64,000 bases of DNA from Acidobacteriota bacterium (GCA_008363385.1 RHKY01000034.1:14903-78902), one strand, 5' to 3'. Counted from the first letter of the stretch, positions 9,876 through 48,770 are shown. Translations and numbers: made by a program. Notes: generated from the letters alone by a model not told the origin.

Positions 9876-10775
9876 TCAGGCGGGGCGAGGGCGGGCGGCG
9901 TCGATGGCGTCGCGCATCGCGGCGACGTGGGCGGGCGTCGTCCCGCAGCAGCCGCCGAGGAGGGTGACGCCCGCCGCGAGGAGGTCCGGGACCCTGGCCG
10001 CCATCCTCCTCGGCGCTTCCGGGTAGACGGTCCGCCCGTCGTGGGAGACGGGGAGCCCCGCGTTCGGGCGCGCCGAGAGCGGGAGCGCCGTCGCCTCGCG
10101 GAAGGCGCGGGCGATCGCGGCCGCCACGGCGCTCCCGGTCCCGCAGTTGGCTCCGAGGACGTCGGCCCCGGCCTCCCCCAGCCGTCGCGCCGCCTTGGCC
10201 ACCGGCACGCCCATCACCGTGAAGAAGCCTCGCGGCGTCTCCTCGAACGTCATCGTCGCCACGACGGGGAGGCCGGGGGCCTTCCTGCGGGCCGCCTCGA
10301 CCGCCAGGCACGCCTCCGCCAGGTCCGACATCGTCTCCACGCAGACGAGGTCGACTCCCGCCGTCGCCAGCGCGTCGGCCTGCCGCTCGAAGGCCGTCCG
10401 GGCGACGTCGAGCGAGAGGTCGCCGAGCGGCGCCAGGAGCTCGCCGAGCGGGCCGACCGACCCCGAGACGAGCGCCCGCCTCCCGACCCCCTCTCGGATC
10501 GCCGCGACCGCCTGCCGGCAGACCTCCGCGCACTTCCCCGAGAGGCCGTGCCGCGAAAGGCGCACCTCCGAGGCCCCGAACGTGTTCGTCGTGATCACCT
10601 CGGCCCCGGCCGCGAAGTAGGCCATCGCGATCTCGGTGAGGAGCCGGGGCCGCGAGAGGCAGACGGTCTCGGGCGGATCGCCGGGGGCGAGCCCCCGCTC
10701 CTGGAGCATCGTCCCCCACGCCCCGTCGCCCAGGACCGGCTCGCCGCGGGAGAGGCGCGAAAGGAGGGGGTCCAC
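9876..10775 (-). CDS. homocysteine-binding (S-methyltransferase, MetH N-terminal-like) domain protein
   Basis: 299 aa: GDGAWGTMLQERGL, ITTNTFGAS, GVDLVCVETMSDL, LGANCGTG, GGCCGTTPAHV. The Cys...Cys-Cys arrangement is the zinc triad of the Pfam S-methyl_trans / MetH Hcy-binding domain. It starts with GTG. Confidence 0.8.
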   Translation of the reverse strand: MDPLLSRLSRGEPVLGDGAWGTMLQERGLAPGDPPETVCLSRPRLLTEIAMAYFAAGAEVITTNTFGASEVRLSRHGLSGKCAEVCRQAVAAIREGVGRRALVSGSVGPLGELLAPLGDLSLDVARTAFERQADALATAGVDLVCVETMSDLAEACLAVEAARRKAPGLPVVATMTFEETPRGFFTVMGVPVAKAARRLGEAGADVLGANCGTGSAVAAAIARAFREATALPLSARPNAGLPVSHDGRTVYPEAPRRMAARVPDLLAAGVTLLGGCCGTTPAHVAAMRDAIDAARPRPA

Positions 10776-10778
10776 GGC

Positions 10779-11456
10779 TCAGGCCCTCCCCGCCTCGGCG
10801 ACGAGGGCGCGGACGCGCTCGACGGCGCTCCGGGCGTCGAAGGCGAAGCCGTCCGCCCCGATCTCGCGCGCGAAGGCCTCCGTCACCGGCGCCCCGCCCA
10901 CGATGACGCGGACGCGGCCCGAGAGCCCCCGCTCGCGGACGAGGCCGATGACGTCGCGCATCCCGGCCATCGTCGTCGTCAGGAGGGCCGACAGGCCGAT
11001 CACCGAGGCCCCGGCCTCCTCGGCCGCCTCGACGAACCGCTCGGCCGGGACGTCCGTGCCGAGGTCCGTCACCTGGAAGCCCGCCCCGCGCAGGAGGATC
11101 CCCACCAGGTTCTTGCCGATGTCGTGGATGTCCCCCTTCACGGTCCCGAGGACGACGCGCCCCGCGCTCGGCGCGCCCCCGGGCCCCAGGAGCGGCTCCA
11201 GGACGTCCATCCCGGCGCGCATCGCGCGCGCGGCCAGGAGGACGTCCGGGAGGAAGACCTCGCGCCGGCCGAACTCCTCGCCGACGACCGACATCCCGGC
11301 GAGGAGCCCGCCCTTCAGGACCTCCGCCGCCGTCGCTCCCTCGGCCAGCGCCCGCCTCGTCCCGACGCGCACCTCGTCCGCCTCTCCCGCGCGCAGGCTC
11401 GCCGCGATCGCCGCGAGCGCAGAGGTCGCCGCGGTCGCTCCTTCCGGCCCGTTCAC
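10779..11456 (-). CDS. cobalamin (B12)-binding corrinoid protein
   Basis: Contains GDIHDIGKNLV (the DxHxxG B12-binding motif) and the Rossmann-like IGLSALLTTTM...VRVIVGGAPVT. The probable start is a GTG at 11456 overlapping the upstream stop (GTGA); the track ORF extends to 11528. Confidence 0.8.
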   Translation of the reverse strand: MNGPEGATAATSALAAIAASLRAGEADEVRVGTRRALAEGATAAEVLKGGLLAGMSVVGEEFGRREVFLPDVLLAARAMRAGMDVLEPLLGPGGAPSAGRVVLGTVKGDIHDIGKNLVGILLRGAGFQVTDLGTDVPAERFVEAAEEAGASVIGLSALLTTTMAGMRDVIGLVRERGLSGRVRVIVGGAPVTEAFAREIGADGFAFDARSAVERVRALVAEAGRA

Positions 11457-12190
11457 GCACCCTCCTCTTCGCTCGAAGGCCTCGCGCGGAGCGAGGCCAT
11501 CCGCGTCAGGCACGTCTTCTCCTCGCACCCGTCGCAGAAGTCGAAGTCGGGCCGGAAGCGGTGCGCCTCGGCCGCAGCCGCCACGAGTACGCCCGAGACC
11601 GACTTCACCGGCTCCATGAGCCCCCCCGCCCCGAGCCGGATCCCCGCCTCGCGCGGGGCCAGGCGCGCGAAGAGCGACCGCTGCCCTTCGAGCCGCCAGC
11701 CGCAGTACCCGGGCGAGTAGGCCAGGACGCGCGTCTCGCCGTCCGCGCGCCCCTGCTCGCGCAGGCGCGACAGGAGCGCCCCGGAAAGCCGCTCGGAGAG
11801 GCGCTCTGCCGCCCCCGCGGCGACGGCGTCGAGGAGGAAGGCTCGGGGGGCGTCCCCCTGGTCGAAGAGGGAGGAGACGCGGGCCCCGACCTCGGGCCCC
11901 AGCGTCGCCGCGAAGAGCGAGAAGGTCCTGGCGCGCGGGACCACCCGGTCGACGGCGGCCTCCTCCCCGTCCCGCCCGCCGTCGGAGAGGACGGCCAGGA
12001 AGTCGTCCCGGCCGACCTCCTCCTCCACGCCGCGGGGCCGCGCCTCGCGCAGGAAGAGCGAGACCGCCTCGGCGAGGAGAGCGTCCACCCGCGGCGACGG
12101 CTCCTGACCGGCCGGGATCCCCGCGGCGACGAGGAGGCGTTCCCTCGACGGGACGATCCCGGACGGGGCGAACGAGTGGACGCGCCTCAC
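11453..12190 (-). CDS. methionine-synthase-type reactivation (Met_synt_B12-like) domain protein
   Basis: 245 aa with VLAYSPGYCGWRLEGQRSLFARL, resembling the MetH activation/AdoMet-binding domain. It is embedded between the MttB-like gene and the corrinoid protein. Confidence 0.6.
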   Translation of the reverse strand: MRRVHSFAPSGIVPSRERLLVAAGIPAGQEPSPRVDALLAEAVSLFLREARPRGVEEEVGRDDFLAVLSDGGRDGEEAAVDRVVPRARTFSLFAATLGPEVGARVSSLFDQGDAPRAFLLDAVAAGAAERLSERLSGALLSRLREQGRADGETRVLAYSPGYCGWRLEGQRSLFARLAPREAGIRLGAGGLMEPVKSVSGVLVAAAAEAHRFRPDFDFCDGCEEKTCLTRMASLRARPSSEEEGA

Positions 12191-13641
12191 GGCCCCCGCT
12201 CCGGCAGCCGGTCGGCCCCCGCGCGGCGCGCCGCGGCCTCCATCAGGAGGACGAGGTCCCGCCGCGCCGCGTCAGCGAGACGACCCGGCTTCCACGCCCC
12301 GACGCGCCTCGCAACCTCGGCGGAGGCCCTCGCCGCAAGCGTCGCCGCGCCGTCCGCCCGCCACCGCTCCTCGCGGTTCCGGTCGAGGACGGGGCCCGGG
12401 AAGGAGATCTCCTTGCGGAGGTTCCTCCGCGTGTGGGAGGCGATGAGCAGGTGCTTCTCGGCGAGGAGCTCCGAGAGGATCGGCAGCGCAGGGAAATCGT
12501 CCCGCGGCTCGACGCCGCGGACGAGGCGGAGCGCCATCCCGCACAGCTCGTCGTCCAGGACGAGCTTCTCCAGGCTGAAGCCGTCGTCCAGGTCGAGGAG
12601 GCCGGGCCCCGAGACGCTGTTGACGCCCGAGAGCGCGGCGAGCAGGGCCCCGGCGGCGCTCTCGAGCCCGGCCTGGGCGTCCAGCTCCTTGGCGTCGGAG
12701 ACCGTCGCGTACCCCTGCGTCGGCAGGCCCAGCGACTTCCCCACCTCGTTCATCCCGCACGTCAGCATCGACGTCTCGATCGCGCCCGTCGGGGCCGTCT
12801 CGCTCCGCACGTCGAAGACCGCGGCCGACGTCCCCCAGAGGAGCGGCGCGCCCGGCGCGGCCAGCTGGTGGAGGACGACTCCCAGGAGCGCCTCGGCCGT
12901 CCCCTGGACGAGGGTGCCGACGAGCGTCACCGGCGAGACGAACCCCGCCATCGGCACCGGGACGATCTCCACCGGCACGCCGGACCGGGCGGCGAGGACG
13001 AGGACGCGCGCGGCCTCCTCCGACCAGGAGAGGGGCGCGGTCGGGCAGCAGGTGAAGACCGCGAACGGCCTCTCGCGCAGCGCGGTGGCGCTCCCCCGGA
13101 CGGCGAGGAGCATCTCGAGCATCGTCGCGAACCCCTCGGCCGAGAAGGACCCGGTCACGACCGGCTTCTCGCAGTGGAGGAGCCCCAGGAAGAGCCGGTA
13201 GGAGTCCGAGACCGTGGCCGGGACGTCCGAGGGGACGAAGGCCGTGCTCTGGGCGTAGAGGTTCGGGAGGGAGGAGACGAGCCTGGCGTACCGGACGTAG
13301 TCGGCGGTGACCGGCGGCCGCAGCGCTCCCCCGTCGAGGAGGCGGGTCGCCGCGGAGCCGGGGGCGAAGCCGACGGAGTCGCCCGCCAGCTCGTGCGCCC
13401 GCTCGCCCGGGACGTCGTAGAGGGCGAACCCGCGCGGGGCCGTCCCGAGGGCCTTCTCGACGAGCGCGCCGGGCAGCCGCGCCCTTCGCGCGCCTGGGTC
13501 CACCTCGGCCCCGTGGTCGGCGAGGAGGGCGAGCGCTGCCGGGTCGTGGACCTCCACGCCGAGCCGCAGGAGCACCTCGCGGGCCTCCGCCACGATCCGC
13601 TCGCGGAGTGTGTCGCCGAGGAGGCGGAGGAGGGGCCGCAC
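12187..13641 (-). CDS. trimethylamine-methyltransferase (MttB) superfamily protein, non-pyrrolysine type; probable quaternary-amine:corrinoid methyltransferase
   Basis: C-terminal ~485 aa of track ORF 12187..14034: LGDTLRERIVAEAREVLLRLGVEVHD...FTCCPTAPLSWSEEA...GTLVQGTAEALLGVVLHQ...SMLTCGMNEVG...GVNSVSGPGLLDLDDGFSLEKLVLDDE matches the MttB/MtgB fold. The start is uncertain: the GTG near 13641 is proposed because the ATG at 13716 collides with the divergent gene. Confidence 0.75.
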   Translation of the reverse strand: MRPLLRLLGDTLRERIVAEAREVLLRLGVEVHDPAALALLADHGAEVDPGARRARLPGALVEKALGTAPRGFALYDVPGERAHELAGDSVGFAPGSAATRLLDGGALRPPVTADYVRYARLVSSLPNLYAQSTAFVPSDVPATVSDSYRLFLGLLHCEKPVVTGSFSAEGFATMLEMLLAVRGSATALRERPFAVFTCCPTAPLSWSEEAARVLVLAARSGVPVEIVPVPMAGFVSPVTLVGTLVQGTAEALLGVVLHQLAAPGAPLLWGTSAAVFDVRSETAPTGAIETSMLTCGMNEVGKSLGLPTQGYATVSDAKELDAQAGLESAAGALLAALSGVNSVSGPGLLDLDDGFSLEKLVLDDELCGMALRLVRGVEPRDDFPALPILSELLAEKHLLIASHTRRNLRKEISFPGPVLDRNREERWRADGAATLAARASAEVARRVGAWKPGRLADAARRDLVLLMEAAARRAGADRLPERGP

Positions 13642-13714
13642 GGTGCGCGCGAGTCTACCGGCCCTCGCCCCCCTTGCGCGGGTCCTGCGACTGCGTCCAC
13701 CATCCGCGCCACCC

Positions 13715-14812
13715 ATGAGCAACGCCCTCCCCCTCCTCGGGACGATCGCCCTGGCGATCGCCGCGCTCCTGACGCTCCTCGTCGCAGCGATGACGAGCCT
13801 CTTCACGATGAAGCTGCCGGGCGGTCCGGACGCGATGGGGATCGTCGTCGTCTTCTTCGTCCAGCTCCTGGCGTGGGTCCTGACGCTGGGCGCCGCCTTC
13901 GCGGCCGTTCGCCGCGGCTCGTTCGACTGGCTGACGCGGAGCGGCGCGCTCGCCGCGCTCCTCGTCCTCGTCGTCGTCGCGGGCCTCGCCGGCCTCGCGG
14001 TGGCCGCCGCCAACGCCTCGCTGAGCCCGGCCACCCCCGCCCGGACGCTCGTCGGCCTGTCGGGGGCCCTCCTCCTCCCGCTTCTTGCTCAGGCGTACCT
14101 CCTCGGCCTCCTCCGCTCCGACGCCGCTTCGGTCGGCGCGAGCCCGTGGACACGCCCCGTGGCGGGCCTCCTCGCGCTCGCCGCGCTCCTGGCCTGCGGG
14201 CTGGGCCTCCTCGAGATGGTCCGCTCCGGGAGGCAGAAGGCCCGCGCGATCGAAGCGGCGCGGCAGCACGAGGACGCCTGGCAGGCCGAGCAGCGCGAGT
14301 GGCGGAAGAGGAAGGACGCCGAGGACGCGGCCGCCCTCGACGCCCTCCCCGACGACGCGCCGCTCGAGACGTTCGTCACGCACCTCTTCATCGACAAGTC
14401 CGACGCGCACCAGGCGCGCGCGCTGGCGCGGATCCGGAAGCTGCCGGGCCTGACGGACCGCCTCGCCGAGTGCCTCTCGGGCCCCGAGCCGCTCCAGCGC
14501 GAGTACTGCGCCAGCGTCATCCGGCGCTCGGAGGACCCCGATCCCGCCTGGGCGCCGATCGTCGGGAAGGCGATCACCCTCCTCGCCGAGGACTACCGCC
14601 GGGACGCCAGGGACCGCGCGCGGGGGAAGATCACGCACGTCACCGGACTGACGAAGGGGATCCTCCTTGCGGCCCAGCGGTTCGACGTCCGCTTCGAGGC
14701 GGAGGCGCGGGACCTGAAGGCCGCGCTGAGGTCCTGGCCCGACCCGGACCAGCGCAAAGAGCCGATCGGCCTCGTCGACCTCTACCTCGCGGGTCAGCGC
14801 ATCTCGAACTGA
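13715..14812 (+). CDS. hypothetical membrane protein (about five N-terminal TM helices plus a C-terminal soluble domain)
   Basis: Starts MSNALPLLGTIALAIAALLTLLVAAM and carries further hydrophobic helices. The charged helical C-terminus has good amino-acid composition (E, K, D, W, Y, F). Confidence 0.55.
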   Translation: MSNALPLLGTIALAIAALLTLLVAAMTSLFTMKLPGGPDAMGIVVVFFVQLLAWVLTLGAAFAAVRRGSFDWLTRSGALAALLVLVVVAGLAGLAVAAANASLSPATPARTLVGLSGALLLPLLAQAYLLGLLRSDAASVGASPWTRPVAGLLALAALLACGLGLLEMVRSGRQKARAIEAARQHEDAWQAEQREWRKRKDAEDAAALDALPDDAPLETFVTHLFIDKSDAHQARALARIRKLPGLTDRLAECLSGPEPLQREYCASVIRRSEDPDPAWAPIVGKAITLLAEDYRRDARDRARGKITHVTGLTKGILLAAQRFDVRFEAEARDLKAALRSWPDPDQRKEPIGLVDLYLAGQRISN

Positions 14813-17800
14813 GGCCGCGGCCGCGGCCGCCGAACGACGACCGGCTCGGGCCAGCCCGGGACGGAGGGCTCCCCGGCCGGGACGGAGTCCAGCAGCGCGG
14901 CCAGCTCCTCCGCCCAAGAAAGGACGTCGGCCGGGCGGTCCTCCGGCCTCTTGGCGAGCGCCCGGCCGAGGAGGGCGTCCACGCCGGTGGGGATCCCCGC
15001 CACCGTGCCTGCGAGAGGGCGGGGCGGGGCCTTCAGGACGACGGCGAAGGTCCGGGCCAGGTCCCCCTCGGGCACGAGCCGCCGGCCCGAGAGGGCCTCG
15101 TGGAGGACGGCCGCCAGCGAGTAGAGGTCGCTCCGCGCGTCCACCGCCTCGCCGCGCACCTGCTCGGGCGACATGTAGGCGGGCGTCCCGACGATCGTCC
15201 CGGTCTGCGTGAGGTGCCCCTCGACCCGGAGCGACTTGGCGACGCCGAAGTCGAGGACCTTCGCCTGGATGCCTCCGTCGCCGGGGACGAGGAAGACGTT
15301 CGCCGGCTTGACGTCGCGGTGGACGACGCCGGCCCGGTGCGCGGCCTCGAGCGCCCCGCCGGCGTGACGCGCGAGGCGAGCGACCTGCGAGGGCGTCCCC
15401 GCCCCGTGCGTGGCCAGCGCGTCGGCGAGGCTCACGCCCGAGAGGTGCTCCATCACGAGGAAGACCGAGCCGTCGCCCAGCTCGCCGGTGTCGAAGACGG
15501 CCACGACGCCGGGGTGGCGGATCTGCGCCACGATCCGCGCCTCGCGCTCGAACCGCAGGAGGGCCCCGGCGTCCCGCAGCCGGTCGGGCCGGACCACCTT
15601 CACGACGACCAGCCGGTCCAGCCGCTCGTCGCGCGCCTCGAAGACCGTCCCCATCCCCCCCTCGCCCAGCCAGCGCAGGAGGCGGTACCGGCCGTCCGGG
15701 CGGAGCGGGAGGAACCGCGACCAGTCGGGCGGGGCCCCGTCCGAGGGGCAGGCCGTCACGCCGTCGTCGAAGACCTCGCCGCAGGACGGGCAGACGGCGG
15801 CCAGCTCCACGCCCTTCCTGTGCAGCTCCTCGCGGTGCGCCAGGCGCGCGGCCTCGGAGGTCACGAGCCGCTCGCGTAGCGCCCGCAGGTCGAGCGCCGT
15901 CCCGAGGTGGCGCGCCAGGCTCGCGATCACCCTCCGCTGCACCTCGCCCCACGAGGGCCCCGGCCCCTCGACGGCGACGACGCCCCGCGGCTCGCCGGTC
16001 ATCCCGAGGACCGGCACGACGAGGCCCGTCTCGCGCGAGAGGACCCCGTCGTCGCGGAGCGCCTCGCGCATCTCCTTCCAGTCGGGGACCCGGAGGCTCG
16101 TCGAGGCGAGGGGGACCAGGACGCCGTCCTCGATCAGCCAGATGCCGATCTCCCGGGCGCCGATCGCGCGGGCCATCTCGCGCGCGACCGACCGGGCCCA
16201 CGCCGCGGGGTCCTCGAGCACCCCGGACGTCGTCGTCGTGAGCTTCTCGATCTGCTCCTGGGCCCGCTGCAGCTCCTCGGACCGCTTCTTCAGCTCGCCG
16301 GCCCTCTCGTCGACGACCCGCTCGAGCTCGCGCTCGCGTCGCTTCAGCCGCCGGATCCGGAGGCGGTGCGCCGCGAGCGCGGCGCCGAGGACGAGGCCGG
16401 CGGCGAGCGAGAGGAACCACCAGGTCTGGTAGAAGAACGGGGCGAGGGAGAGCGAGAGCTCGGCTCCCGTCTCGTTCCAGACCCCGTCGTCGTTGGCCGC
16501 GACGACGCGGAATCGGTACCAGCCGTGCCGGAGGTTCGTGTACGTGGCGGAGCGGGCCGTCCCGGCGTCCACCCAGCTCCGGTCGAACCCCTCCAGGCGG
16601 TGACGGAAGCGGACCCGGGCGGGGACGGCCAGGCTCGTCGCCGTGTAGCGCAGCTCGATCCGCTCCGTCCCCGGGCCGATCCGGACCGTCTCGCCGAGGG
16701 GAACCGTCCGCCCGTCGACGAGGAGCTCCTCGACGAGGACGGGCGGGGGGAGGGGGTTCGTCGGGAGGCGTCCGGGGTCGATGCTCGTGATCCCCTTGAT
16801 CGTCGCCACGAGGAGGCGGCCGTCCCGTGTCCGGATGCCCGCCGGGGAGCCGGCGTTGCACTCGGCGCTCCCCATGCCGTCCGCCTTCCCGAACGCCTCG
16901 CTCGTCACGCGCGGGAGGCGCCTGTCGGCGAAGGCGTCGAGCTCGTCGCGGGCCACGCGGAAGACGCCGTGGTTCGAGCTCATCCAGAGGAAGCCCTTCC
17001 CGTCCTCGAGGACCTGGAAGACGACGTCGTCGTGGAGGCCGTGCGCGCTCGTGATCGCCGCGAGCTTCCCGTCCGAGAGGCGGTTCAGCCCCCCGCCCGA
17101 CGTGCCGACCCAGAGCGTCCCGCGCTCGTCCTCGTGGAGCGAGAAGACGCGCGGGCTCGACAGCCCGTGCGCGGCCCGCCACGTCCGGAACTCCCCGTCC
17201 TTCAGCCGGCCGAGGCCCCCCCCGTCGCTCCCGATCCAGAGGCTCCCGTCGCGCCCGGCGAGGAGCGCCCGGATGCTGCTCCCCGGGAGGCCGTTCTCGG
17301 GCGTGAACGTGGTGAACCGCCCGTCCTTCCAGCGCGAGAGCCCGCTCACGGTCCCGAGCCAGACGGCCCCCTCGCCGTCGCTCACGATCGCCCGGACCCG
17401 GTCGTTGACGAGGCCGTCCGCCGTCGTCAGCCGCCGGAGCCGGCCCTTCTCGAGGACGTTGACGCCGGCCCCGTCGGTCCCGATCCAGACCCGGCCCGCG
17501 CTGTCCTCGTGGAGCGAGAAGACCTGGTCGCTCGCCAGGCCCTCCGCCGTCGTCAGCGTCGTGGCCTTCCCGCCCGAGAAGCGTGTGACGCCCCCGCCGG
17601 TCGTCCCGGCCCAGAGGGAGCCGTCGCGGTCCTCCAGGACCGCCCTCACGACGTCGTTCCCGAGGCCGTCGCGCGTCGAGACGTTCGCGAACTTCCCGTT
17701 CCGGAGCCGCACGAGGCCCCCGCCGGAGGTGCCGATCCAGAGGCTCCCCTCGCGGTCCTCGAAGAGCGAGACGACGAAGTCGTTCGCCAGGCCCTGCCGC

Positions 17801-18756
17801 GCCGTGAACGGCTCGAACCGTCCGTCGCGGAACCTGTGGACCCCGGCGCCGTCCGTCCCGACCCAGAGGCTCCCGTCGCGGTCGAGGAGGAGCGTCCGGA
17901 TCGAGAGGCTGGGCAGCCCCTCCGCGGGGCCGAAGGCGGTGACGCCGTCGTCGCGGACGCGGAAGAGGCCCGCGCCGTCGGTGCCGGCCCAGAGGCTCCC
18001 GTCCGCGTCGACGAGGGTCGGCCGGACGAGGAGAGCCGCCGGGCCGCTCCCGAGGCTACGCGCAACGAGCTTCCCGTCCTCCAGGACCTGCAGCCCGCCC
18101 CCGAAGGTCCCGATCCAGAGCCGCCCGCGCCCGTCCGCCGCCGCCGACCAGACGCGGTTCGACGCCAGTCCCTGCTTCTCCGAGAGCGTCGAGAGGCGGC
18201 CTCCGACGTACCGCCCGAGGCCGCCGCCCCCGGTGGCGATCCAGAGGTCCCCGCTGCGGTCCGCGCCGAGCGAGCGGATCCTCTCGCTCGGGAGCCCCTG
18301 CGCCCTCGTGAAGAGCTCGAACCTCCCGCCCCGCAGCCGGACGAGCCCCCCGCCGAACGTCCCGATCCAGAGGGACCCCGTCCGGTCCACGTGGAGCGCC
18401 ATGACGAAGTTGTTCCTCAGCTCCGGCGTCGTCTTCCGGTCGAAGACCGTGAACCGGACGCCGTCGAACCGGACGAGCCCCTCCTCGGTCCCGAGCCAGA
18501 GGTAGCCGTCGGGCGTCTGGGCGATCGCGTTGACGGTGTTCTGCGGCAGACCGTCGTCCTGCGTGAAGGAGTCGACGACGTACTGCGTCGTCCTCCGGCC
18601 CGGATCCAGGGCCCTCGCTCGCGGGGCGGCCAGGAGCGCCGCGAGGAGGGCCGCCGCGAGGAGTCCGGGGCTCCGGAGCCAGAACCGGCCGCGGCGCGGC
18701 ACGGCAGGACCGCCGCGCGCGGCTCGCGTGCCCGGGACACCCCCGCCTCTCACCAC
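14794..18756 (-). CDS. sensor Ser/Thr protein kinase with an N-terminal periplasmic two-component-regulator propeller (Reg_prop repeats plus Y_Y_Y), TM helix, coiled coil, zinc ribbon and C-terminal kinase domain
   Basis: About 1300 aa. A signal peptide is followed by about 14 repeats of the ...G(T/S)xxGLxRF/Y..G.F..F... type (Reg_prop) and then a Y_Y_Y-like segment (YRFRVVAANDDGVWN). Next come a TM helix (WWFLSLAAGLVLGAALAAHRL), a coiled coil, a zinc ribbon (CPSCGEVFDDGVTACP) and a Hanks kinase (GEGGMGTVFEA, VVKVV, HRDVKPANVF, DFG, GTPAYMSPE). The start may instead be the GTG near 18702. Confidence 0.75.
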   Translation of the reverse strand: MVRGGGVPGTRAARGGPAVPRRGRFWLRSPGLLAAALLAALLAAPRARALDPGRRTTQYVVDSFTQDDGLPQNTVNAIAQTPDGYLWLGTEEGLVRFDGVRFTVFDRKTTPELRNNFVMALHVDRTGSLWIGTFGGGLVRLRGGRFELFTRAQGLPSERIRSLGADRSGDLWIATGGGGLGRYVGGRLSTLSEKQGLASNRVWSAAADGRGRLWIGTFGGGLQVLEDGKLVARSLGSGPAALLVRPTLVDADGSLWAGTDGAGLFRVRDDGVTAFGPAEGLPSLSIRTLLLDRDGSLWVGTDGAGVHRFRDGRFEPFTARQGLANDFVVSLFEDREGSLWIGTSGGGLVRLRNGKFANVSTRDGLGNDVVRAVLEDRDGSLWAGTTGGGVTRFSGGKATTLTTAEGLASDQVFSLHEDSAGRVWIGTDGAGVNVLEKGRLRRLTTADGLVNDRVRAIVSDGEGAVWLGTVSGLSRWKDGRFTTFTPENGLPGSSIRALLAGRDGSLWIGSDGGGLGRLKDGEFRTWRAAHGLSSPRVFSLHEDERGTLWVGTSGGGLNRLSDGKLAAITSAHGLHDDVVFQVLEDGKGFLWMSSNHGVFRVARDELDAFADRRLPRVTSEAFGKADGMGSAECNAGSPAGIRTRDGRLLVATIKGITSIDPGRLPTNPLPPPVLVEELLVDGRTVPLGETVRIGPGTERIELRYTATSLAVPARVRFRHRLEGFDRSWVDAGTARSATYTNLRHGWYRFRVVAANDDGVWNETGAELSLSLAPFFYQTWWFLSLAAGLVLGAALAAHRLRIRRLKRRERELERVVDERAGELKKRSEELQRAQEQIEKLTTTTSGVLEDPAAWARSVAREMARAIGAREIGIWLIEDGVLVPLASTSLRVPDWKEMREALRDDGVLSRETGLVVPVLGMTGEPRGVVAVEGPGPSWGEVQRRVIASLARHLGTALDLRALRERLVTSEAARLAHREELHRKGVELAAVCPSCGEVFDDGVTACPSDGAPPDWSRFLPLRPDGRYRLLRWLGEGGMGTVFEARDERLDRLVVVKVVRPDRLRDAGALLRFEREARIVAQIRHPGVVAVFDTGELGDGSVFLVMEHLSGVSLADALATHGAGTPSQVARLARHAGGALEAAHRAGVVHRDVKPANVFLVPGDGGIQAKVLDFGVAKSLRVEGHLTQTGTIVGTPAYMSPEQVRGEAVDARSDLYSLAAVLHEALSGRRLVPEGDLARTFAVVLKAPPRPLAGTVAGIPTGVDALLGRALAKRPEDRPADVLSWAEELAALLDSVPAGEPSVPGWPEPVVVRRPRPRPQFEMR

Positions 18757-18805: not shown

Positions 18806-19459
18806 CTACGGCCGGGCTCGCGTGCCGGGACCCCGGCGCGCCGGACCCGGGCGCGCCGGCCTCCGCCGGTGGCGGCGCGCCTTCTCCCGGTTCCCGCAGA
18901 CCGTCATGTCGCACCATCGGCGGGAGCCGTTCCGGCTCCGGTCGAGGAAGAGCCAGGCGCAGCCCTCCCCCTCGCACCACCTCACGCGCCCCGTCTCGCC
19001 GGACGTCAGGAGCTCGGCGGCCGAGACCAGGACCGGCCAGAGGACCCGGTCGAGCGCGGGCGGGTCCTCCTCGCGCCACGCCCACGCGACGCCGGCCCCG
19101 TTCCGGACGAGGCGGCGCGCGGAGAGCGCGGCGGCGAGGGCCTCGTCGAGGGCAGCGAGCGAGGGCTCGGGAAGGGCCCGGCCCTCGACGACGGCCGCAA
19201 AGAGGCGGAACAGCTCCTCGCGAAGGCCCCGCGCCCGCTGCAGCGCCCGGGAGGCGGCGCGGGGATCCCGCCCCGCCTCGCGCGTGAGGCGCCGCGCTGT
19301 CCGCTCGTCGATCGCCCCGGCCTGCAGCCCCCAGGCGACGAGGTCGGCGTACTCGTGCAGGTGCTCCTTCGGCTCGGCCCGCCGCCGCTCGCCGAGGGTG
19401 TTCGGGAGGTCGAGGCAGAGGCTCCCCCCGGTGATCTCGAACCCGGGCGGCGGCCTCAT
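18806..19459 (-). CDS. ABATE / CGNR zinc-finger domain protein
   Basis: 217 aa with a C-terminal RWCEGEGCAWLFLDRSRNGSRRWCDMTVCGNREKARRH, the CGNR zinc-finger motif. Confidence 0.7.
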   Translation of the reverse strand: MRPPPGFEITGGSLCLDLPNTLGERRRAEPKEHLHEYADLVAWGLQAGAIDERTARRLTREAGRDPRAASRALQRARGLREELFRLFAAVVEGRALPEPSLAALDEALAAALSARRLVRNGAGVAWAWREEDPPALDRVLWPVLVSAAELLTSGETGRVRWCEGEGCAWLFLDRSRNGSRRWCDMTVCGNREKARRHRRRPARPGPARRGPGTRARP

Positions 19460-22584: not shown

Positions 22585-25500
22585 TCAGGCGGTCGCGGCC
22601 GGGACGAGGCGGGGGTGGAGCGCTGCCGGGATCGGCGTGTCGAGCCTCCAGACGATGCTCACCGGCCGCTCCCCCTCGTGCGACTCGTACCGCGCCCGTC
22701 CCAGGAACGTGAACGCCACGGCGCGCCCCTCCGCGTCCTTGGACCGCTCGCGGACGAAGAGCCAGAAGCTCCAGCCGCTCCCGTCCTCGCCCGTGTATCG
22801 GCGCAAGGTCGGTGAGCCGCTCCGGACGGTGCTCTGCGTCTGCCAGTGGAAGCGGCCCGGCCCGAGCGCGTAGTCGTGGTAGCGCGTGGAGGGACGGAAG
22901 AGGCGCGCCTCCTTCTCGACCGTCACGAAGAGGAGCTCGGCGGCCTGGTCCGGCATCCGGAAGACCCCCTCGCGGCTGGGCGCCTTCCGCTCGAGCGTCG
23001 ACGCCCCGACAGCGGCCAGGACCTCGTCCCGCTGGTACGACCGGTGGAGCGAGAGGGCCCACCCGGGCGGCAGGCTGGCACCGGGGCTGACGCTGGGGGT
23101 CCGCTCCAGGAGCAGCTCCGCCAGCTCGGCCAGCTCCCCTCCGGCGGGCGAGTACGCAAGGCGGGCCACGAGGCCGTGCGGCGTCCGGGGCGCCCCGTCC
23201 GGGAAGAGCCTCCGCGCCAGCATCACCAGCCGCCGGCCGTCCGCCGTCGTCAGCGCCTCGATCTCGGCCGGCCCGAGGTTCGGGATCCGTTTCCAGAGCG
23301 AGAGCCGCTCGGGCTCGTCGACGTGGAGGAGGCCGCCCAGCCGGCGCGCGAGCTCCTCGTCCCCGGACTCCGGACCGATCAGGCCTGCCGCCCGGCGAAT
23401 CGCCGTCCAGCTTCCGAGGGACGAGGCGTAGACGTCGTCGAGCTCGCGCCCGGTCTCGTCCAGGAACCGGGCGAGCGTCACGTCTCCCCCGCCGCCGGCC
23501 ATCTCGCGCGCTTCGCGGACGAGCGTCTCCTTCTTCCGGTCGAGCGCCTGCCTCAGGTGCGCGAGCACCTGCTCGCGGACGATCCGGTCCAGCTGGAGGC
23601 TGCATCCGGCCGGGAGGAGGGGGAAGCCCCGATCGACCTCCTCGCGGAGCGTCCCTCTCTGCATCCCCGTCAGCGCCCGCAGGACCGCCTCGAAGCGGAA
23701 CTCCCTCCGGTGCTGCCCCACGAAGTCGAGGACCAGCGCGGCCGTCTTCCCCTCCGACAGGCGCAGCCCGCGCCCCAGCTGCTGCTGGAAGAGGAGGACG
23801 CTGTCCGTCGGGCGGAGGAGGAGGATCGTGTCCACCTCCGGGATGTCGACCCCTTCGTTGTAGAGGTCGCACGTGAAGACGACCGAGACCTCGCCGTCGC
23901 GCAGCCTCCGGGGGGCCTGCTCGCGCTCCTCGTCGGAGGAGCCGCCGTGGACCGCGAGGGCCGGCACCCCCCACTCGGTGAACCTCCGCGCCATGAACCT
24001 CGCGTGCTCGACGCCGACGCAGAAGCCGAGCGCGCGGACTCTCATCGGGTCGCCCGCCTTCTCGCAGAGCTGCTTCAGGACCAGGGCCGCCCGCGCGTCG
24101 TTCCCCGTGTAGACGTTCTCGAGGCCCGCGTCGACGTACCGCCCACGCCGCCACTCGACCGCCGTCAGGTCCGTCCCGTCGCTGATCCCGAAGTAGTCGA
24201 AGGGCGCCACCAGCTGCCGGTCGATCGCGTCCCAGAGGCGGATCTCGGCGCTCGGGTGGCCGCCGAACCGGGAGAGGACGTCCTGCATGTCCGTCCGCTC
24301 GGGCGTGGCGGTGAGCCCGAGGAGGACCCCCGGGTCCAGCACGTCGAGGAGCCTCCGGTACGTCGGGGCCGCCGCGTGGTGGAACTCGTCGACGACGACC
24401 ACGTCCCAGTGAGTCCTGCCGAGGCGGGTGGCCAGGTCCTGCCGGTCGAGGCTCTGGATCGTCGCGAAGAGGTGGTCGTGCGCCTCCGGGGTCCGGCCGC
24501 CCCCCATCCGCTCGCCGAACGACGCGTCGCGGAGCACGGTCCGGTAGGCCTGGAGCGCCTGGTCGAGGATCTCCTCCCGGTGGGCGACGAAGAGGAGGCG
24601 CGGCGCGAGGCCCTTCTCCTGCCGGAGGCGGCGGTAGTCGAACGCCGCCACCATCGTCTTGCCGGTCCCCGTCGCCGCCACGACGAGGTGGCGCGACTTC
24701 CCGAGGAGGCGCCGTTCGGCGTCGAGCCGGTCCAAGATCTCCTGCTGGAACGGGTACGGCCTCACGTCCGGGAAGAAGGCGGTCCCGCGGACGGACACCG
24801 GGACGCCGCGTGCCTGGGCGAGGGCCCCTTCGAGCCTCGCCGCCGTCTCCGGGTCGCGCGGGTCGATCGCCTCGAACTCCGGGTCGTCCCAGAGCGAGTC
24901 GAAGGCCGCTCGGAAGCGCTCGACCACGGCCGGGCTCTCCCGTTCCGAGGCTTTCAGCGTCCACTCGAGCCCCTCGCCCAGCGCCGGGGCCGAGAGGTTC
25001 GCCGACCCGACGTAGACCGTCGAGAGGCCGTTCGACCGCCGGAAGAGCCACGCCTTGGCGTGCAGGCGCGTCCGGCGCCCGTCGTACGAGACCCGGACCT
25101 CCGCCCCCTCCATCGCCGCGATCTCGAGGAGCGCTCTCGCCTCCGTCGCGCCGGTGTACGTCGTGGCGAGGAGCCGGAAGCGGCCCTTCCGCCGAAGGAG
25201 GCTCTCGACAGGCTCCCGGACTCGCTGCCACCCCCGCCACGTCACGAAGCTGACGAGAGCGTCCACCTCGTCGGCGCTTTCCATCTCGGCGGCGAGCTCG
25301 GCCCCCAGCCGGGGCTCGTCGCGCCCCGCGGTCAGGAGGACGCTCCGGTCGAGCGGCGTCACCGGGCGGCGCGTCGGCGCCGCCCCGGCCCGGATTCCCC
25401 GGAGGACCCGCAGCGGCGGGACGACCGTCTCCTCGCCGCCGTCCTCGAAGCCCCTCTCGCGGAGCCAGTCGAGCGCCTCGTTCGCGAGGCGGACGACGCG

Positions 25501-25713
25501 GTCCTCCCCGGCCGCGTCCTCGTCCTCTGCAGGCTCCTGCCGCGCCAGCGTCCTCGAGATGGCACGAGAGAGATGGCGGACGAGCCGCTCCTGGGCCTCC
25601 TCGGCACCGGGACCGTCGTCGACGTCGGGAAGCAGACCGGTGGCCGAGGCCTCGGAGACCAGCCGCTCGAGGGCCCGCGTCAGCAGGTCGTCGTAGATCC
25701 CGGGGCGCGGCAT
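22585..25713 (-). CDS. PLD-family nuclease + SF2 (DExH) helicase + DUF3427-like C-terminal domain protein; restriction/defence-like
   Basis: 1042 aa. The N-terminal PLD/NgoFVII-like HKD motif is RLHAKAWLF...VYVGSANLS. Helicase motifs are VAATGTGKT (Walker A), VVVVDEFHHAAA (DExH), GLTATPER and the motif VI region QQLGRGLR. The C-terminal about 250 aa are conserved-looking (HDYALGPGRFHWQTQ). Confidence 0.8.
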   Translation of the reverse strand: MPRPGIYDDLLTRALERLVSEASATGLLPDVDDGPGAEEAQERLVRHLSRAISRTLARQEPAEDEDAAGEDRVVRLANEALDWLRERGFEDGGEETVVPPLRVLRGIRAGAAPTRRPVTPLDRSVLLTAGRDEPRLGAELAAEMESADEVDALVSFVTWRGWQRVREPVESLLRRKGRFRLLATTYTGATEARALLEIAAMEGAEVRVSYDGRRTRLHAKAWLFRRSNGLSTVYVGSANLSAPALGEGLEWTLKASERESPAVVERFRAAFDSLWDDPEFEAIDPRDPETAARLEGALAQARGVPVSVRGTAFFPDVRPYPFQQEILDRLDAERRLLGKSRHLVVAATGTGKTMVAAFDYRRLRQEKGLAPRLLFVAHREEILDQALQAYRTVLRDASFGERMGGGRTPEAHDHLFATIQSLDRQDLATRLGRTHWDVVVVDEFHHAAAPTYRRLLDVLDPGVLLGLTATPERTDMQDVLSRFGGHPSAEIRLWDAIDRQLVAPFDYFGISDGTDLTAVEWRRGRYVDAGLENVYTGNDARAALVLKQLCEKAGDPMRVRALGFCVGVEHARFMARRFTEWGVPALAVHGGSSDEEREQAPRRLRDGEVSVVFTCDLYNEGVDIPEVDTILLLRPTDSVLLFQQQLGRGLRLSEGKTAALVLDFVGQHRREFRFEAVLRALTGMQRGTLREEVDRGFPLLPAGCSLQLDRIVREQVLAHLRQALDRKKETLVREAREMAGGGGDVTLARFLDETGRELDDVYASSLGSWTAIRRAAGLIGPESGDEELARRLGGLLHVDEPERLSLWKRIPNLGPAEIEALTTADGRRLVMLARRLFPDGAPRTPHGLVARLAYSPAGGELAELAELLLERTPSVSPGASLPPGWALSLHRSYQRDEVLAAVGASTLERKAPSREGVFRMPDQAAELLFVTVEKEARLFRPSTRYHDYALGPGRFHWQTQSTVRSGSPTLRRYTGEDGSGWSFWLFVRERSKDAEGRAVAFTFLGRARYESHEGERPVSIVWRLDTPIPAALHPRLVPAATA

Positions 25714-38904: not shown

Positions 38905-41538
38905 TCACCGCACCCCCTTGGCGACCGCCAGCGAGCTCGACCCGCCTCGGAACCGCATCAGGAAGTAGCGCGCGTCGGTCGTGACGGTCAGGAACCCGTA
39001 GAGGCCGTGCGCCGACCCGCTCGGGCGCCACTCGAAGGCGGGCTCCCGGCGCCCGGTCGAGAGGTCCAGCCGCTCGACGCGGGCGGGGATCCTCCGGTCC
39101 CAGACGTAGACCGCGTCGCTCGCGGAGGACCAGGCGACGACGACCTCGCCCGCGACCGCGCCGGGGACCGCGCGGCTCGCGCCGTCGGCCGTCGCGAAGA
39201 GGGTCGGCGCCGCGCCGCCGGTCGCGCCGACCACCAGCCGGCCGTGCGGGGAGATCAGGAGCCAGCTCATCCCGGCCGGCGTCACCGGGCGCGGGGGCGC
39301 CCCCGCCTCGAGGTCGAAGACGTACCCGCGCGCCTCCTCGCCCTCGCGGCGGCCGAGGAAGGCGACGTGCCGCCCGTCGGCGGCGCACGTCACCCGGTGC
39401 GTGGTCGAGGCCTCGAGGACGACTCCCGAGAGGTCGAACGTCCGCGCCTCGCCCGGCCCGGTCGGGACGGCGCGCAGCTTCGTCCGGTCCCGCGTGTGGG
39501 TCGCCAGGAAGGCCCAGCGGCCGTCCGGCGTGATCCCCACCGCCGTCCCCGACCCGAGGCCGATCTGCGGGCCGGAGGCGCCCCGCCGGTAGTGCGCCCG
39601 GTACTCGCCCTGCTCCAGCAGGCCCCCGTCGGTCCCGACCACCACCGTGCCGTCCTCGGAGAGGCCGTCGACGGTGGCGCCGGTCAGGGCGCCCACGCCG
39701 AGCCTTGCCGGTCCCTCCGCGAGGCGTCCCTCGACGACGATCGGCAGCGAGTCGGCGGTCAGCAGGATCGTGCCGCTCTCGGCGACGTCGTGGAGGCGCG
39801 CGTTCGCCATCGTCCGCAGGACGGTGCGCGGCGGGCGGGACGGCGAGATGGCGGAGACGTAGCTCCCCTCGTCGGTCGACCCGTACGTGGTGAGGACCTC
39901 GGTCCCGTCCGCCGACCAGGCGACGCTGTGCATGAAGTTCAGCGTCTCGGAGAGCCTCGCGGGCTCGCCCGTCCCGTCGAGGACGGTGACGTGCCCCATG
40001 TCGTCGCCCGGGATCGGGTGCTCGACGAAGGCCACGCGGCGGCCGTCGCGAGAGATGCGGGGGGACGAGATCCAGCCGCGGGTGCGGAAGCGGACCGTTC
40101 CGATCGGGTACTCCAGACGCTGGCCGCCCTTGTCCGCGCGCACGACGGCGAAGCTCTGCCCGTCGGGCGCGATGTCGGCCTCGAAGATCCCCTCGAGGAG
40201 GGCGCGGGGGGCGCCGCCCGCGAGCGAGGCCTGCGCCAGGGTCCCGGTCCTCAGCCAGCTCCCCTCGTGGCGGCGGTCGAGGATCAGGGCCATCTCGCCG
40301 TTCTTCGCGATGCCGACGACGTCGGCGCTCGGCAGGTCGAGCCGGCGCGACGCGATGGCGTCGTCCCGCGTCGTCGACAGGAAGACCGGCTCTCCGGCGC
40401 GGGCCTCGCCGTAGACGATCGTCACGCCGTCGGGGGCGAAGCGCGCGGAGTGGACGAAGCCCTCCTCGGACGTGAGGAGGTGGTAGCTGGGCTCCGCGGC
40501 GGCGGCGGGACCCCGGAGGCGCGCGATCGCGAGCCCGGCCGCGAGGCCGAGCAGGAGGAACGCGGCGGCCCCCGCCGCCAGGAGGAGCCGTCGCCGGCGC
40601 GGCGCGGCGACCGTCCCGCCCGGCGCGGGCGCGGAGGCCTCGGCGGCGCCGCCCGAGGCGGCCTCGTCGAGGACGATCCGCGCGTCGGCGACGTCGTGCA
40701 GCCGGTTCCTCGGGTTCCGCTCCAGGCAGCGGCGCAGGAGCGAGAGGACGGCCGGGGGCGTGGCGGAAGGCAGCGCCGCCCAGTCGACCTCGGCGCGCAG
40801 GACCGCGGCGATCGTGTCGGAGACCGTCTCCCCCTCGAAGGGGCGCCTGCCGGCCAGCATCTCGTAGAGCAGGGCGCCGAAGGCCCAGACGTCTGCCCGC
40901 TTGTCGACCGCCCCGCCGCGCGCCTGCTCGGGCGACATGTAGGCGGCGGTGCCGAGGATGACGCCCATCGCGGTCCCGGGCGCGGTCAGCGTCGGCGAGT
41001 TCATCAGGGCCGGCGAGCGGAGGAGGTCGGCGGCGCCCGAGGACGACGGCGCCGCCGGGTCCATCGCCTTCGCCAGTCCGAAGTCGAGGACCTTCACCTT
41101 CCCGTCCGGCGTGACCTTGACGTTCGCGGGCTTCAGGTCCCGGTGGACGATCCCCTTCTCGTGCGCCTCCTCCAGCGCCTCGGCCACCTGCCGGGCGATC
41201 GAGAGGCACTCCGGGACGGGGAGGGCGCCCCGGGCGAGGCGGTCGGCGAGGGTGGGGCCCTCGACCAGCTCCATGACGAGCGCGTGCGCGTCGCCGCTCG
41301 TCTCCAGCCCGTAGACCTGGGCGACGTTCGGGTGGTTGAGCCGGGCCAGGAGCTGCGCCTCGCGCTGGAACCGGGCGAGGCGCTCGGCGTCCTGCGTGAA
41401 CGTCGCCGGCAGGACCTTGATCGCCACCTCGCGCCGGAGGCCGGTGTCCGTCGCCCGCCAGACCTCCCCCATCCCGCCGGCGCCGAGCTTCGCGGTGACC
41501 TCGTACGGCCCCAGCCGGGCGCCGGGGGCCAGGCTCAC
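38905..41538 (-). CDS. Ser/Thr protein kinase with C-terminal TolB-like (PD40/WD40-like) beta-propeller
   Basis: About 877 aa from a GTG (VSLAPGARLGPYEVTAKLGAGGMGEVWRA). Kinase motifs: AIKVL, HRDLKPANVKV, DFGLAK, GTAAYMSPEQ. A TM helix (LLLAAGAAAFLLLGLAAGLAI) is followed by propeller-like repeats (SRDGRRVAF, SADGTEV, TPDGRW). The start overlaps the upstream paralog's stop (GTGA). Confidence 0.8.
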   Translation of the reverse strand: MSLAPGARLGPYEVTAKLGAGGMGEVWRATDTGLRREVAIKVLPATFTQDAERLARFQREAQLLARLNHPNVAQVYGLETSGDAHALVMELVEGPTLADRLARGALPVPECLSIARQVAEALEEAHEKGIVHRDLKPANVKVTPDGKVKVLDFGLAKAMDPAAPSSSGAADLLRSPALMNSPTLTAPGTAMGVILGTAAYMSPEQARGGAVDKRADVWAFGALLYEMLAGRRPFEGETVSDTIAAVLRAEVDWAALPSATPPAVLSLLRRCLERNPRNRLHDVADARIVLDEAASGGAAEASAPAPGGTVAAPRRRRLLLAAGAAAFLLLGLAAGLAIARLRGPAAAAEPSYHLLTSEEGFVHSARFAPDGVTIVYGEARAGEPVFLSTTRDDAIASRRLDLPSADVVGIAKNGEMALILDRRHEGSWLRTGTLAQASLAGGAPRALLEGIFEADIAPDGQSFAVVRADKGGQRLEYPIGTVRFRTRGWISSPRISRDGRRVAFVEHPIPGDDMGHVTVLDGTGEPARLSETLNFMHSVAWSADGTEVLTTYGSTDEGSYVSAISPSRPPRTVLRTMANARLHDVAESGTILLTADSLPIVVEGRLAEGPARLGVGALTGATVDGLSEDGTVVVGTDGGLLEQGEYRAHYRRGASGPQIGLGSGTAVGITPDGRWAFLATHTRDRTKLRAVPTGPGEARTFDLSGVVLEASTTHRVTCAADGRHVAFLGRREGEEARGYVFDLEAGAPPRPVTPAGMSWLLISPHGRLVVGATGGAAPTLFATADGASRAVPGAVAGEVVVAWSSASDAVYVWDRRIPARVERLDLSTGRREPAFEWRPSGSAHGLYGFLTVTTDARYFLMRFRGGSSSLAVAKGVR

Positions 41539-44219: not shown

Positions 44220-44330
44220 GGGGCGGGTACCTCCTTGAGACGGAGTCTAACCTAGCGGTCGAGGCGCACCGTCGGTCTTCGCGCGGCTAACTCGCCGCGA
44301 GTCAGGGCGTACGCGTTGTCCGATCCGTGC

Positions 44331-48440: not shown

Positions 48441-48539
48441 CGGACGGGGATGTGTACGCCCCGCCGCGCCCCGGCGCAAGGGCCGGCCGGGGGCGGCCCC
48501 CGAGGCGAGGGACCAGCTCCGAGCCGCTATCATCTCCCC

Positions 48540-48770
48540 ATGGCAGGTGCCGGTTCCGGCCGGGAGTTCGACGTCGTCATCGAGCGGGACGAGGAGGGTT
48601 GGTACGTCGCCTCCGTGCCGGCCCTTCGGGGCTGTCACACGCAGGCCCGTTCGCTCGACGAGCTTCGCGAGCGGATCCTCGAGGCGATCGAGCTCTGCCT
48701 CGAGGTGGAAGGCCCTGCCCCGTCACCCCTCGAGTTCGTCGGCATCCAGCGCGTCCGGCTCGCGTCGTGA
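48540..48770 (+). CDS. HicB-like / UPF0150-family antitoxin-like protein (orphan)
   Basis: 76 aa: MAGAGSGREFDVVIERDEEGWYVASVPALRGCHTQARSLDELRERILEAIELCLEV. This is the tail of the otherwise artefactual track ORF 44316..48770. Confidence 0.6.
   Translation: MAGAGSGREFDVVIERDEEGWYVASVPALRGCHTQARSLDELRERILEAIELCLEVEGPAPSPLEFVGIQRVRLAS

Follow-up and report, generated by a model that had tools for sequence, protein, structure and literature searches.

What kind of receptor results when a sensor of the type found in hybrid two-component systems is followed, on the same chain, by a eukaryotic-like Ser/Thr kinase? We addressed this question for a long open reading frame (ORF) on the minus strand of a 64,000-nucleotide stretch of DNA from Acidobacteriota bacterium (GCA_008363385.1, RHKY01000034.1:14903-78902; the whole stretch is hereafter the window). 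An earlier note, made from the sequence alone, had read this ORF as a periplasmic Reg_prop/Y_Y_Y propeller sensor joined through a single transmembrane helix and a coiled coil to a C4 zinc ribbon and a Hanks-type kinase. Our analysis indicates that the product is probably a bitopic, receptor-type Hanks Ser/Thr kinase, a judgement that extends to its architecture and to the general receptor-kinase mechanism; our confidence in any ligand class, metal identity or set of substrates is much lower. The protein belongs to a recurrent, hitherto undescribed family of propeller-kinases, although a receptor Hanks kinase is in itself a known kind of protein.

Architecture of the receptor kinase

The ORF at 14794..18756 (-) comprises 1320 codons counted from the first in-frame GTG. 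It is present as the earlier note had delimited it, with the reservation that the upstream limit is merely that first GTG and that the likely start lies at 18702. A 1302-aa protein, P0001, from a metagenome-assembled genome (MAG; GCA_009612875.1) is 99% identical to the window kinase, with 11 differences, and begins at V19, that is, at GTG 18702; since the leader that follows is also typical (basic, then hydrophobic), we take the gene as 14794..18702. The 1302-aa form carries the N-terminal signal-like peptide MPRRGRFWLRSPGLLAAALLAALLAAPRARA, followed by LD, and cleavage of the leader would be expected between ARA and LD. The features of the gene, in ORF numbering, are as follows.

14794..18702 (-): whole gene, 1302 aa, from the likely GTG start (V19 of the 1320-codon ORF) through the stop codon
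18610..18702 (-): signal peptide or N-terminal anchor, ORF residues 19-49, basic then hydrophobic and ending in ARA before LD, with a hydropathy peak of 1.69 at residue 32
16687..18567 (-): double beta-propeller (Reg_prop), ORF residues 64-690, from Pfam Reg_prop, the alignment to 4a2l/BT4663 and blade motifs
16426..16686 (-): membrane-proximal Y_Y_Y domain, ORF residues 691-777, from Pfam Y_Y_Y and the 4a2l alignment
16360..16425 (-): single transmembrane helix TWWFLSLAAGLVLGAALAAHRL, residues 778-799, the top hydropathy window (1.72)
16234..16359 (-): juxtamembrane helix, probably a coiled coil, residues 800-841 (AlphaFold2 helix 2-41; predicted local distance difference test score, pLDDT, about 64-83 for the block)
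15946..16233 (-): compact GAF-fold domain, residues 842-937
15817..15945 (-): long signalling helix from the GAF domain to the metal knuckle, residues 938-980 (AlphaFold2 helix 138-180 in a 520-aa model and 97-139 in a 181-aa model)
15691..15816 (-): ribbon/rubredoxin-like knuckle and a strand into the kinase N-lobe, residues 981-1022, from conserved Cys/Asp and predicted beta-hairpins
14887..15690 (-): Hanks-type Ser/Thr kinase domain, residues 1023-1290, from Pfam Pkinase, the PknB alignment, invariant columns and Foldseek
14797..14886 (-): C-terminal tail with a G-W motif (G1301, W1302), from alignment conservation; pLDDT low to moderate

Judged by its residues, the kinase domain is a catalytically complete member of the Hanks type. 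Pfam Pkinase (PF00069) matches residues 1024-1275 with 134.8 bits against a cut-off of 31.7, and the full catalytic set is present: the GEGGMG loop, K1053 (the VAIK Lys), E1072, the HRD Asp D1148, N1153, the DFG Asp D1169 and the SPE Glu E1198. The domain aligns to Mycobacterium tuberculosis PknB (1mru) at E 3e-56 with 38-39% identity, and a Foldseek comparison of the predicted structure with PknB yielded a target-normalised TM-score of 0.89 at 39% identity. The eukaryotic-like kinase proposed in the earlier note is borne out by these results, including the two residues, D1148 and K1053, whose loss would have spoken against it. Conservation within the family leads in the same direction. In 35 family members, K253, E272, H346, R347, D348, K350, P351, N353, D369, F370, G371, T383, P397 and E398 are invariant (fragment numbering, in which R1023 is R223), and so are R1023, L1046 and D1089 (fragment R223, L246 and D289), the equivalents of PknB R10, L33 and D76. 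Two substitutions at these positions, L33D and D76A, are published mutants of the back-to-back interface of PknB (PMC13434768; titles of PDB entries 3ori and 3orm). The activation loop reads T1183-Q-T1185. In the alignment of the propeller-kinase family, the tail contains an invariant W502 and a G501 conserved in at least 90% of the sequences (fragment numbering).

Residues 64 to 778 align in one piece to the sensor structure 4a2l at E 3.4e-71, with weaker matches to three related structures (3v9f, 3ott and 3va6); 4a2l and 4a2m represent BT4663, a Bacteroides hybrid two-component sensor (PMC8534201). Pfam Reg_prop matches at E 4e-67 across 10 stretches, and 13 W-x-G-T blade motifs lie between residues 87 and 591, mostly 42 residues apart (one spacing of 43 and one of 41); a 14th, degenerate blade would bring the total to about 14. 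The Y_Y_Y match (residues 712-768; 46.1 bits, cut-off 26.6) ends about 10 residues short of the transmembrane helix. The domain search suggested in the earlier note accordingly returned Reg_prop, Y_Y_Y and Pkinase, all far beyond chance, and its periplasmic double propeller with Y_Y_Y of the kind found in BT4663 and other hybrid two-component systems (HTCSs) stands on both Pfam and the end-to-end alignment to 4a2l; generic WD40 or PQQ repeats lacking a Y_Y_Y domain, the outcome that would have spoken against it, were not what the search revealed.

With a 19-residue window, hydropathy peaks most strongly in two places, in the signal peptide (from residue 32) and at residues 778-796, which suggests that the sensor is extracytoplasmic and lies between the signal-like peptide and the single transmembrane helix. 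Because the helix (residues ~778-799) is directly followed by the basic stretch RLRIRRLKRRER, we assign the C-terminal 520 residues to the cytoplasm. This part was modelled with AlphaFold2 from 35 homologues (pLDDT 85), and a second model covered 181 aa. The predicted order begins with a helix of 40 residues and a small alpha/beta domain; a helix of 43 residues follows, then a pair of short hairpins with the Cys motif and finally the kinase. Both elements by which the earlier note had connected the sensor to the ribbon, the single transmembrane helix and the coiled coil, were recovered, the latter as a probable coiled coil whose dimeric packing is presumed; what had been missed is the domain at residues 842-937, which has a GAF fold, and the helix of about 43 residues behind it.

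The ribbon itself required revision. Its motif is CPSCG-x10-CPSDG, contributed by C989, C992, C1003 and D1006, and the whole protein has four Cys, three in the knuckle and a fourth, C633, in the periplasmic part. With the Pfam Zn_ribbon_3 model scoring 14.7-16.1 bits, below its cut-off of 27, the C4 zinc ribbon of the earlier note does not hold, and the knuckle is instead a Cys3-Asp site with one rubredoxin-type CPxCG half, its metal ligands being putative. The first, second and last knuckle Cys (C1, C2 and C4) occur in 155 of 155 family sequences and the Asp at the fourth knuckle position in 144 of the 155. In both AlphaFold2 models, the Cys motifs lie between short beta-strands; a Foldseek search with the whole cytoplasmic model returned kinase domains only and no match to the knuckle.

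Proposed mechanism, known relatives and competing explanations

We compared the protein with characterized systems. With BT4663 (4a2l/4a2m) it shares a propeller and Y_Y_Y region homologous over its whole length (query 46-760, chain 34-787) and followed by a transmembrane helix, whereas the output of BT4663 is replaced by a GAF domain, a metal knuckle and a Hanks kinase. Since the window protein has no HisKA, HATPase_c, receiver or AraC domain at E≤0.1 in Pfam, it is not an HTCS. With PknB (1mru, 1o6y) it shares a bitopic layout, the catalytic motifs, the T-x-T loop and the conserved R10/L33/D76 dimer residues; in contrast to PknB, in which the kinase is N-terminal and extracellular PASTA domains are C-terminal, the sensor comes first and the kinase last, the sensor is of the propeller/Y_Y_Y type, and the chain contains a GAF domain and metal knuckle as insertions. 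The protein also falls outside the PASTA kinases as defined by the NCBIfam model PknB_PASTA_kin (NF033483), which scores 258.4 bits, below its cut-off of 450, and matches the kinase domain only, and no PASTA domain was matched by Pfam. The third relative, PknG, likewise has a small CPxCG-type Cys-knuckle domain directly N-terminal to its Hanks core (PMC8546545). It differs in being a soluble protein with a TPR domain and with neither periplasmic sensor nor GAF domain, and in the window protein the second knuckle reads CxxDG rather than CxxCG and there is no PknG_rubred match.

Acidobacteriota and Myxococcota are rich in Hanks kinases, and for most of these the activating signal is obscure. A receptor kinase with a propeller sensor already exists in M. 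tuberculosis PknD, a Hanks kinase with an extracellular beta-propeller; that propeller is a single, six-bladed, C-terminal one of NHL type, unrelated to Reg_prop, and PknD is not known to have a Y_Y_Y domain, GAF domain or knuckle. The unusual features of the window protein are the HTCS-type sensor at its N-terminus and the conserved adaptor formed by the GAF domain and knuckle. The finding is an incremental advance on domain shuffling in signal transduction, neat but expected, and brings no new principle. Its practical value is that a Hanks kinase is here joined to a sensor for which a Bacteroides structure and a transmembrane model have been worked out, offering a tractable system for the extracytoplasmic activation of a Ser/Thr kinase.

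Based on these comparisons, we propose the following course of signalling. The receptor kinase would act as a homodimer, in which a periplasmic ligand, an oligosaccharide by analogy only, would shift the relative position of the Y_Y_Y domains and transmembrane helices, as proposed for BT4663. A scissor-blade model of signalling by BT4663 (4a2l/4a2m) is cited in PMC8534201, and scissor-like transmembrane signalling is plausible here by analogy. The shift would reach the knuckle, predicted to pack beside the kinase N-lobe, by way of the coiled coil, the GAF dimer and the signalling helix, and would favour a back-to-back N-lobe dimer, followed by trans-autophosphorylation of T1183/T1185; the active kinase would then phosphorylate cytoplasmic substrates. 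Activation of the back-to-back, PknB type is proposed because the family does not vary at the positions aligned with R10, L33 and D76.

Several observations weigh against this picture. The activation loop is a low-confidence part of the AlphaFold2 model, and one of the name-giving Tyr residues of the Y_Y_Y domain is replaced by His (RFRHRLEG against the consensus RFRYRLEG). The family-invariant positions of the GAF domain are A, G and L, with no polar pocket residues among them. Conservation of the gene neighbourhood extends to one near-identical MAG and no further, so that it offers no pointer to a ligand or target. We found no paper on the propeller-kinase fusion or on its output cassette, which is weak evidence of absence, as the literature covered omits most subscription journals. 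Finally, dimerisation, like the nature of the ligand, the metal and the substrates, is inferred.

The most serious competing explanation concerns the ligand: rather than a free glycan, the sensor may recognise lipopolysaccharide, a fragment of peptidoglycan, a partner protein or some other component of the envelope, or may report the state of the envelope. Identity to BT4663 is low and carbohydrate-utilisation genes do not flank the kinase gene, both of which leave room for such a ligand. The known ligands of this sensor class, those bound by Bacteroides HTCS proteins, are oligosaccharides, and nothing positive speaks for another one. The kinase protein also has a weak NCBIfam match to the type IX secretion protein PorZ (NF052228, E 1.6e-17), which delivers anionic lipopolysaccharide according to the title of PMC8545088 and whose structure is probed in a paper that also cites BT4663 (PMC5121618). 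On balance, we regard an envelope ligand as a real possibility, somewhat less probable than not, alongside the oligosaccharide suggested by analogy.

It is less likely that the cytoplasmic GAF domain is a second sensor, binding a small molecule, nucleotide or metabolite, so that the protein integrates two signals or the cytoplasmic one dominates. The fold is a true GAF fold, ligand binding is common among GAF domains, and the output cassette described below retains its GAF domain whatever input precedes it, soluble receiver domains included. Against this, the Pfam GAF models cover only the C-terminal half and score under threshold (GAF_3, 20.9-22.6 bits with a cut-off of 27; GAF_2, 18.8-21.4 with 28.6; GAF, 17.5-19.4 with 22.4), reaching E≤0.01 in just 7 of 35 homologues. 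The domain is also short, at about 95 residues compared with about 150 in typical GAF domains, and its family-invariant positions (A17, G84, A107, L110 and L114) are small or hydrophobic, which better suits a dimerisation or transmission module. Given the lack of a conserved polar pocket, we favour transmission over ligand binding, and the GAF domain may be purely structural or may sense some signal.

A redox or Fe-S/iron sensor in place of a structural zinc site would make the knuckle itself the gate of the kinase. This idea leans on PknG, whose rubredoxin-like (Rdx) domain, proposed to gate the kinase, lies N-terminal to it (PMC8546545). The knuckle of the window protein is likewise directly N-terminal to the kinase and includes a rubredoxin-type CPxCG, and 144 of 155 family members, having an extra Cys at C2+3, read CxxCxxC…C plus Asp, which amounts to five possible ligands. 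However, PknG_rubred (PF16919) has no match in the window protein at E≤0.1, and of the two CxxCG motifs that define the PknG-type rubredoxin (PMC8546545) the window protein has CPSCG once and CPSDG once. The extra Cys is a Val in the window protein and its closest relatives, leaving Cys3 plus Asp, a set that suits a simple structural metal site better than a cluster. By analogy with PknG, a redox or iron role is possible for the Cys3-Asp variant, although less likely than the structural one, and we consider it improbable overall.

The last alternatives, a chance open frame or a pseudokinase/scaffold product, have almost nothing to recommend them beyond the fact that long spurious ORFs are common at 74% GC (the surroundings of the gene have 74-76%) and that several other-frame ORFs of >1000 aa overlap the kinase gene; they were ruled out by a GC content of 0.98 at third codon positions (GC3) against 0.54 at second positions (GC2), the coding signature expected at this GC, by Pfam E-values down to 1e-67, by full-length homologues at 43-99% identity, and by catalytic motifs that are all invariant.

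The output cassette and origins of the fusion

The receptor-kinase architecture is not confined to the window. A full-length search returned dozens of proteins of the same architecture at 43-73% identity, from MAGs labelled Acidobacteria, Thermoanaerobaculia and Nannocystaceae, all with automatic names such as "protein kinase" or "two-component regulator propeller domain-containing protein"; none of the curated NCBIfam models covers the propeller-kinase protein. The closest species-representative genomes are Holophagales MAGs, with 73-75% identity over a 367-residue junction query and 72-73% over the full-length kinase protein, and the window itself probably stems from a very GC-rich acidobacterium of this order. 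A scan of GTDB genomes with a single-protein query across the sensor-to-kinase junction yielded three loci only, because its exact-peptide seeds are insensitive.

To assess how widely the output part occurs, we searched a profile of the GAF domain and knuckle against 1.84 billion cluster representatives (50% identity), obtaining 733 matches at E≤1e-3, 202 at E≤1e-10 and 115 at E≤1e-30. The best 150 of the 733 representatives, 144 of them newly returned, were mapped with custom profiles. Every one of the 150 that was not cut short before the kinase region matched the kinase profile, and the complete GAF, knuckle and kinase cassette was found in 119 of the 144 newly returned proteins. Among these 119 complete members, 37 have a propeller match of >500 residues, 5 are full-length and have two propellers, the first of them divergent, one (P0250, 984 aa) apparently has a single propeller, 5 are fragments keeping part of the sensor, and 71 have no propeller. 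Six more propeller proteins among the top 150 were known from the full-length search, bringing the double-propeller total to about 48 of 150 on a looser count. The fusion is thus no one-off: at least 37 of the 150 best cassette representatives, or about 48 on the looser count, carry the propeller sensor, and public databases already contain proteins that are near-identical or homologous to the window kinase.

A receiver domain (Response_reg) starts 29 of the 45 complete non-propeller members (P0131 and 28 others), two receiver-domain members also having a HisKA domain, and the remaining inputs include VUPS, dCache_1 with HAMP, 7TMR-DISM, HisKA_7TM with PAS, CHASE2, TPR and tandem GAF domains. 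The Trp of the C-terminal tail is invariant in these non-propeller members, too. As such varied inputs precede it, the GAF–knuckle–kinase unit behaves as a modular output, and, to judge from domain order, it occupies the position normally held by a histidine-kinase transmitter. We tentatively suggest, holding the idea open rather than probable, that the cassette may be an undescribed, self-contained transmitter that replaces the histidine kinase behind standard inputs, with the receiver-domain members wiring His-Asp into Ser/Thr signalling and the knuckle coupling the signalling helix to the N-lobe. So far, the cassette has been found in MAGs labelled Acidobacteria (including Holophagaceae/Holophagales), Thermoanaerobaculia and Nannocystaceae. 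If confirmed, it would represent a transmitter module in its own right, directly linking His-Asp to Ser/Thr signalling, and would supply an annotation rule for several hundred proteins that now have generic labels. The receiver-domain members and the modularity of the cassette are the part of this work most worth following.

The sensor, for its part, is also found with other outputs. Joined to HisKA/HATPase, GGDEF or SpoIIE domains (for example in P0025, P0040 and P0077), it shares 43-52% identity with the window protein over about 60% of the query and has the same sensor and transmembrane layout; these proteins differ in their histidine-kinase, GGDEF or PP2C-type output and in having no GAF–knuckle–Pkinase cassette. 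The occurrence of one sensor on these several outputs supports an output swap, and agrees with the proposal of the earlier note that a His-Asp output was exchanged for a Ser/Thr kinase. Such an exchange seems to have happened repeatedly: P0038, P0083, P0086 and P0088 are Reg_prop/Y_Y_Y-kinase proteins with neither GAF domain nor knuckle, in which the kinase begins 100-115 residues past the Y_Y_Y match, and we conclude from them that the sensor was joined to Hanks kinases more than once. A neighbour-joining tree built from 119 sensor domains does not group the kinase-linked sensors as a single clade; as the tree carries no support values, this pattern is no more than suggestive.

Gene neighbourhood and other genes of the window

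Annotation of the window revealed no carbohydrate-utilisation genes and no polysaccharide-utilisation locus beside the kinase gene, which is a stand-alone receptor. Upstream lie genes for an ABATE/zf-CGNR protein, a QueG-like iron-sulfur (Fer4_16) protein and a bPH_5 protein. Two features are found on the downstream side.

13610-14812 (+): convergent hypothetical ORF, GC3 0.94, with a 19-base overlap with the 3' end of the kinase gene
9876-14034 (-): corrinoid-dependent methyltransferase cluster, on the same strand as the kinase gene and downstream of it, past the convergent gene

The cluster encodes an MTTB-family methyltransferase, a MetH activation-domain-like protein, a B12-binding protein and a homocysteine S-methyltransferase. 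The convergent ORF has no Pfam match; it is annotated, with 365 aa, in the near-identical MAG and is conserved only in that MAG contig.

The arrangement as a whole is common only to the 99%-identical MAG contig, the flanking genes being absent around the homologues with 72-73% and 59-60% identity. As the neighbourhood is not conserved, the neighbouring genes are uninformative on ligand and substrate, and we dropped them as a clue to either. The "housekeeping context" of the earlier note is thus roughly true as a description and says nothing on function. Near one of the 72%-identical orthologues, at a distance of about 2.5 kb, there is a gene for an FHA, GAF and SpoIIE (PP2C-type) phosphatase (locus L085, 1830-3485); its product could be a partner, and the gene is absent near the window gene and near the other examined orthologues.

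A scan of this GC-rich region for promoters and terminators returned nothing usable. The sequence tcccgg(g)cacgcgagcc forms a short direct repeat (18724-18738 and 18815-18829), with its upstream copy at the end of the ABATE gene and its downstream copy in the leader, directly ahead of the likely start codon of the kinase gene; it may be due to chance in GC-rich DNA.

Three further genes of the window deserve mention. A second Hanks kinase (41535-44246, minus strand; 903 aa) has the opposite layout, with Pkinase at the N-terminus and a PD40/WD40-type propeller at the C-terminus. A 1463-aa ORF (44331-48722, minus strand) combines a type IA topoisomerase (Toprim and Topoisom_bac) in its N-terminal part with a RecQ-type helicase (DEAD, Helicase_C, RecQ_Zn_bind and HRDC) in its C-terminal part, a TopoIII–RecQ fusion in one chain. 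Finally, 22585-25713 (minus strand) encodes a helicase with PLDc_2, ResIII, Helicase_C and DUF3427 domains. At the corresponding position of the 99%-identical MAG contig (L001, 1-6118) there are genes for Vsr, a DNA methylase and an MTaX1 protein, together with a 69-aa helicase remnant, and the region looks like a variable defence-type island.

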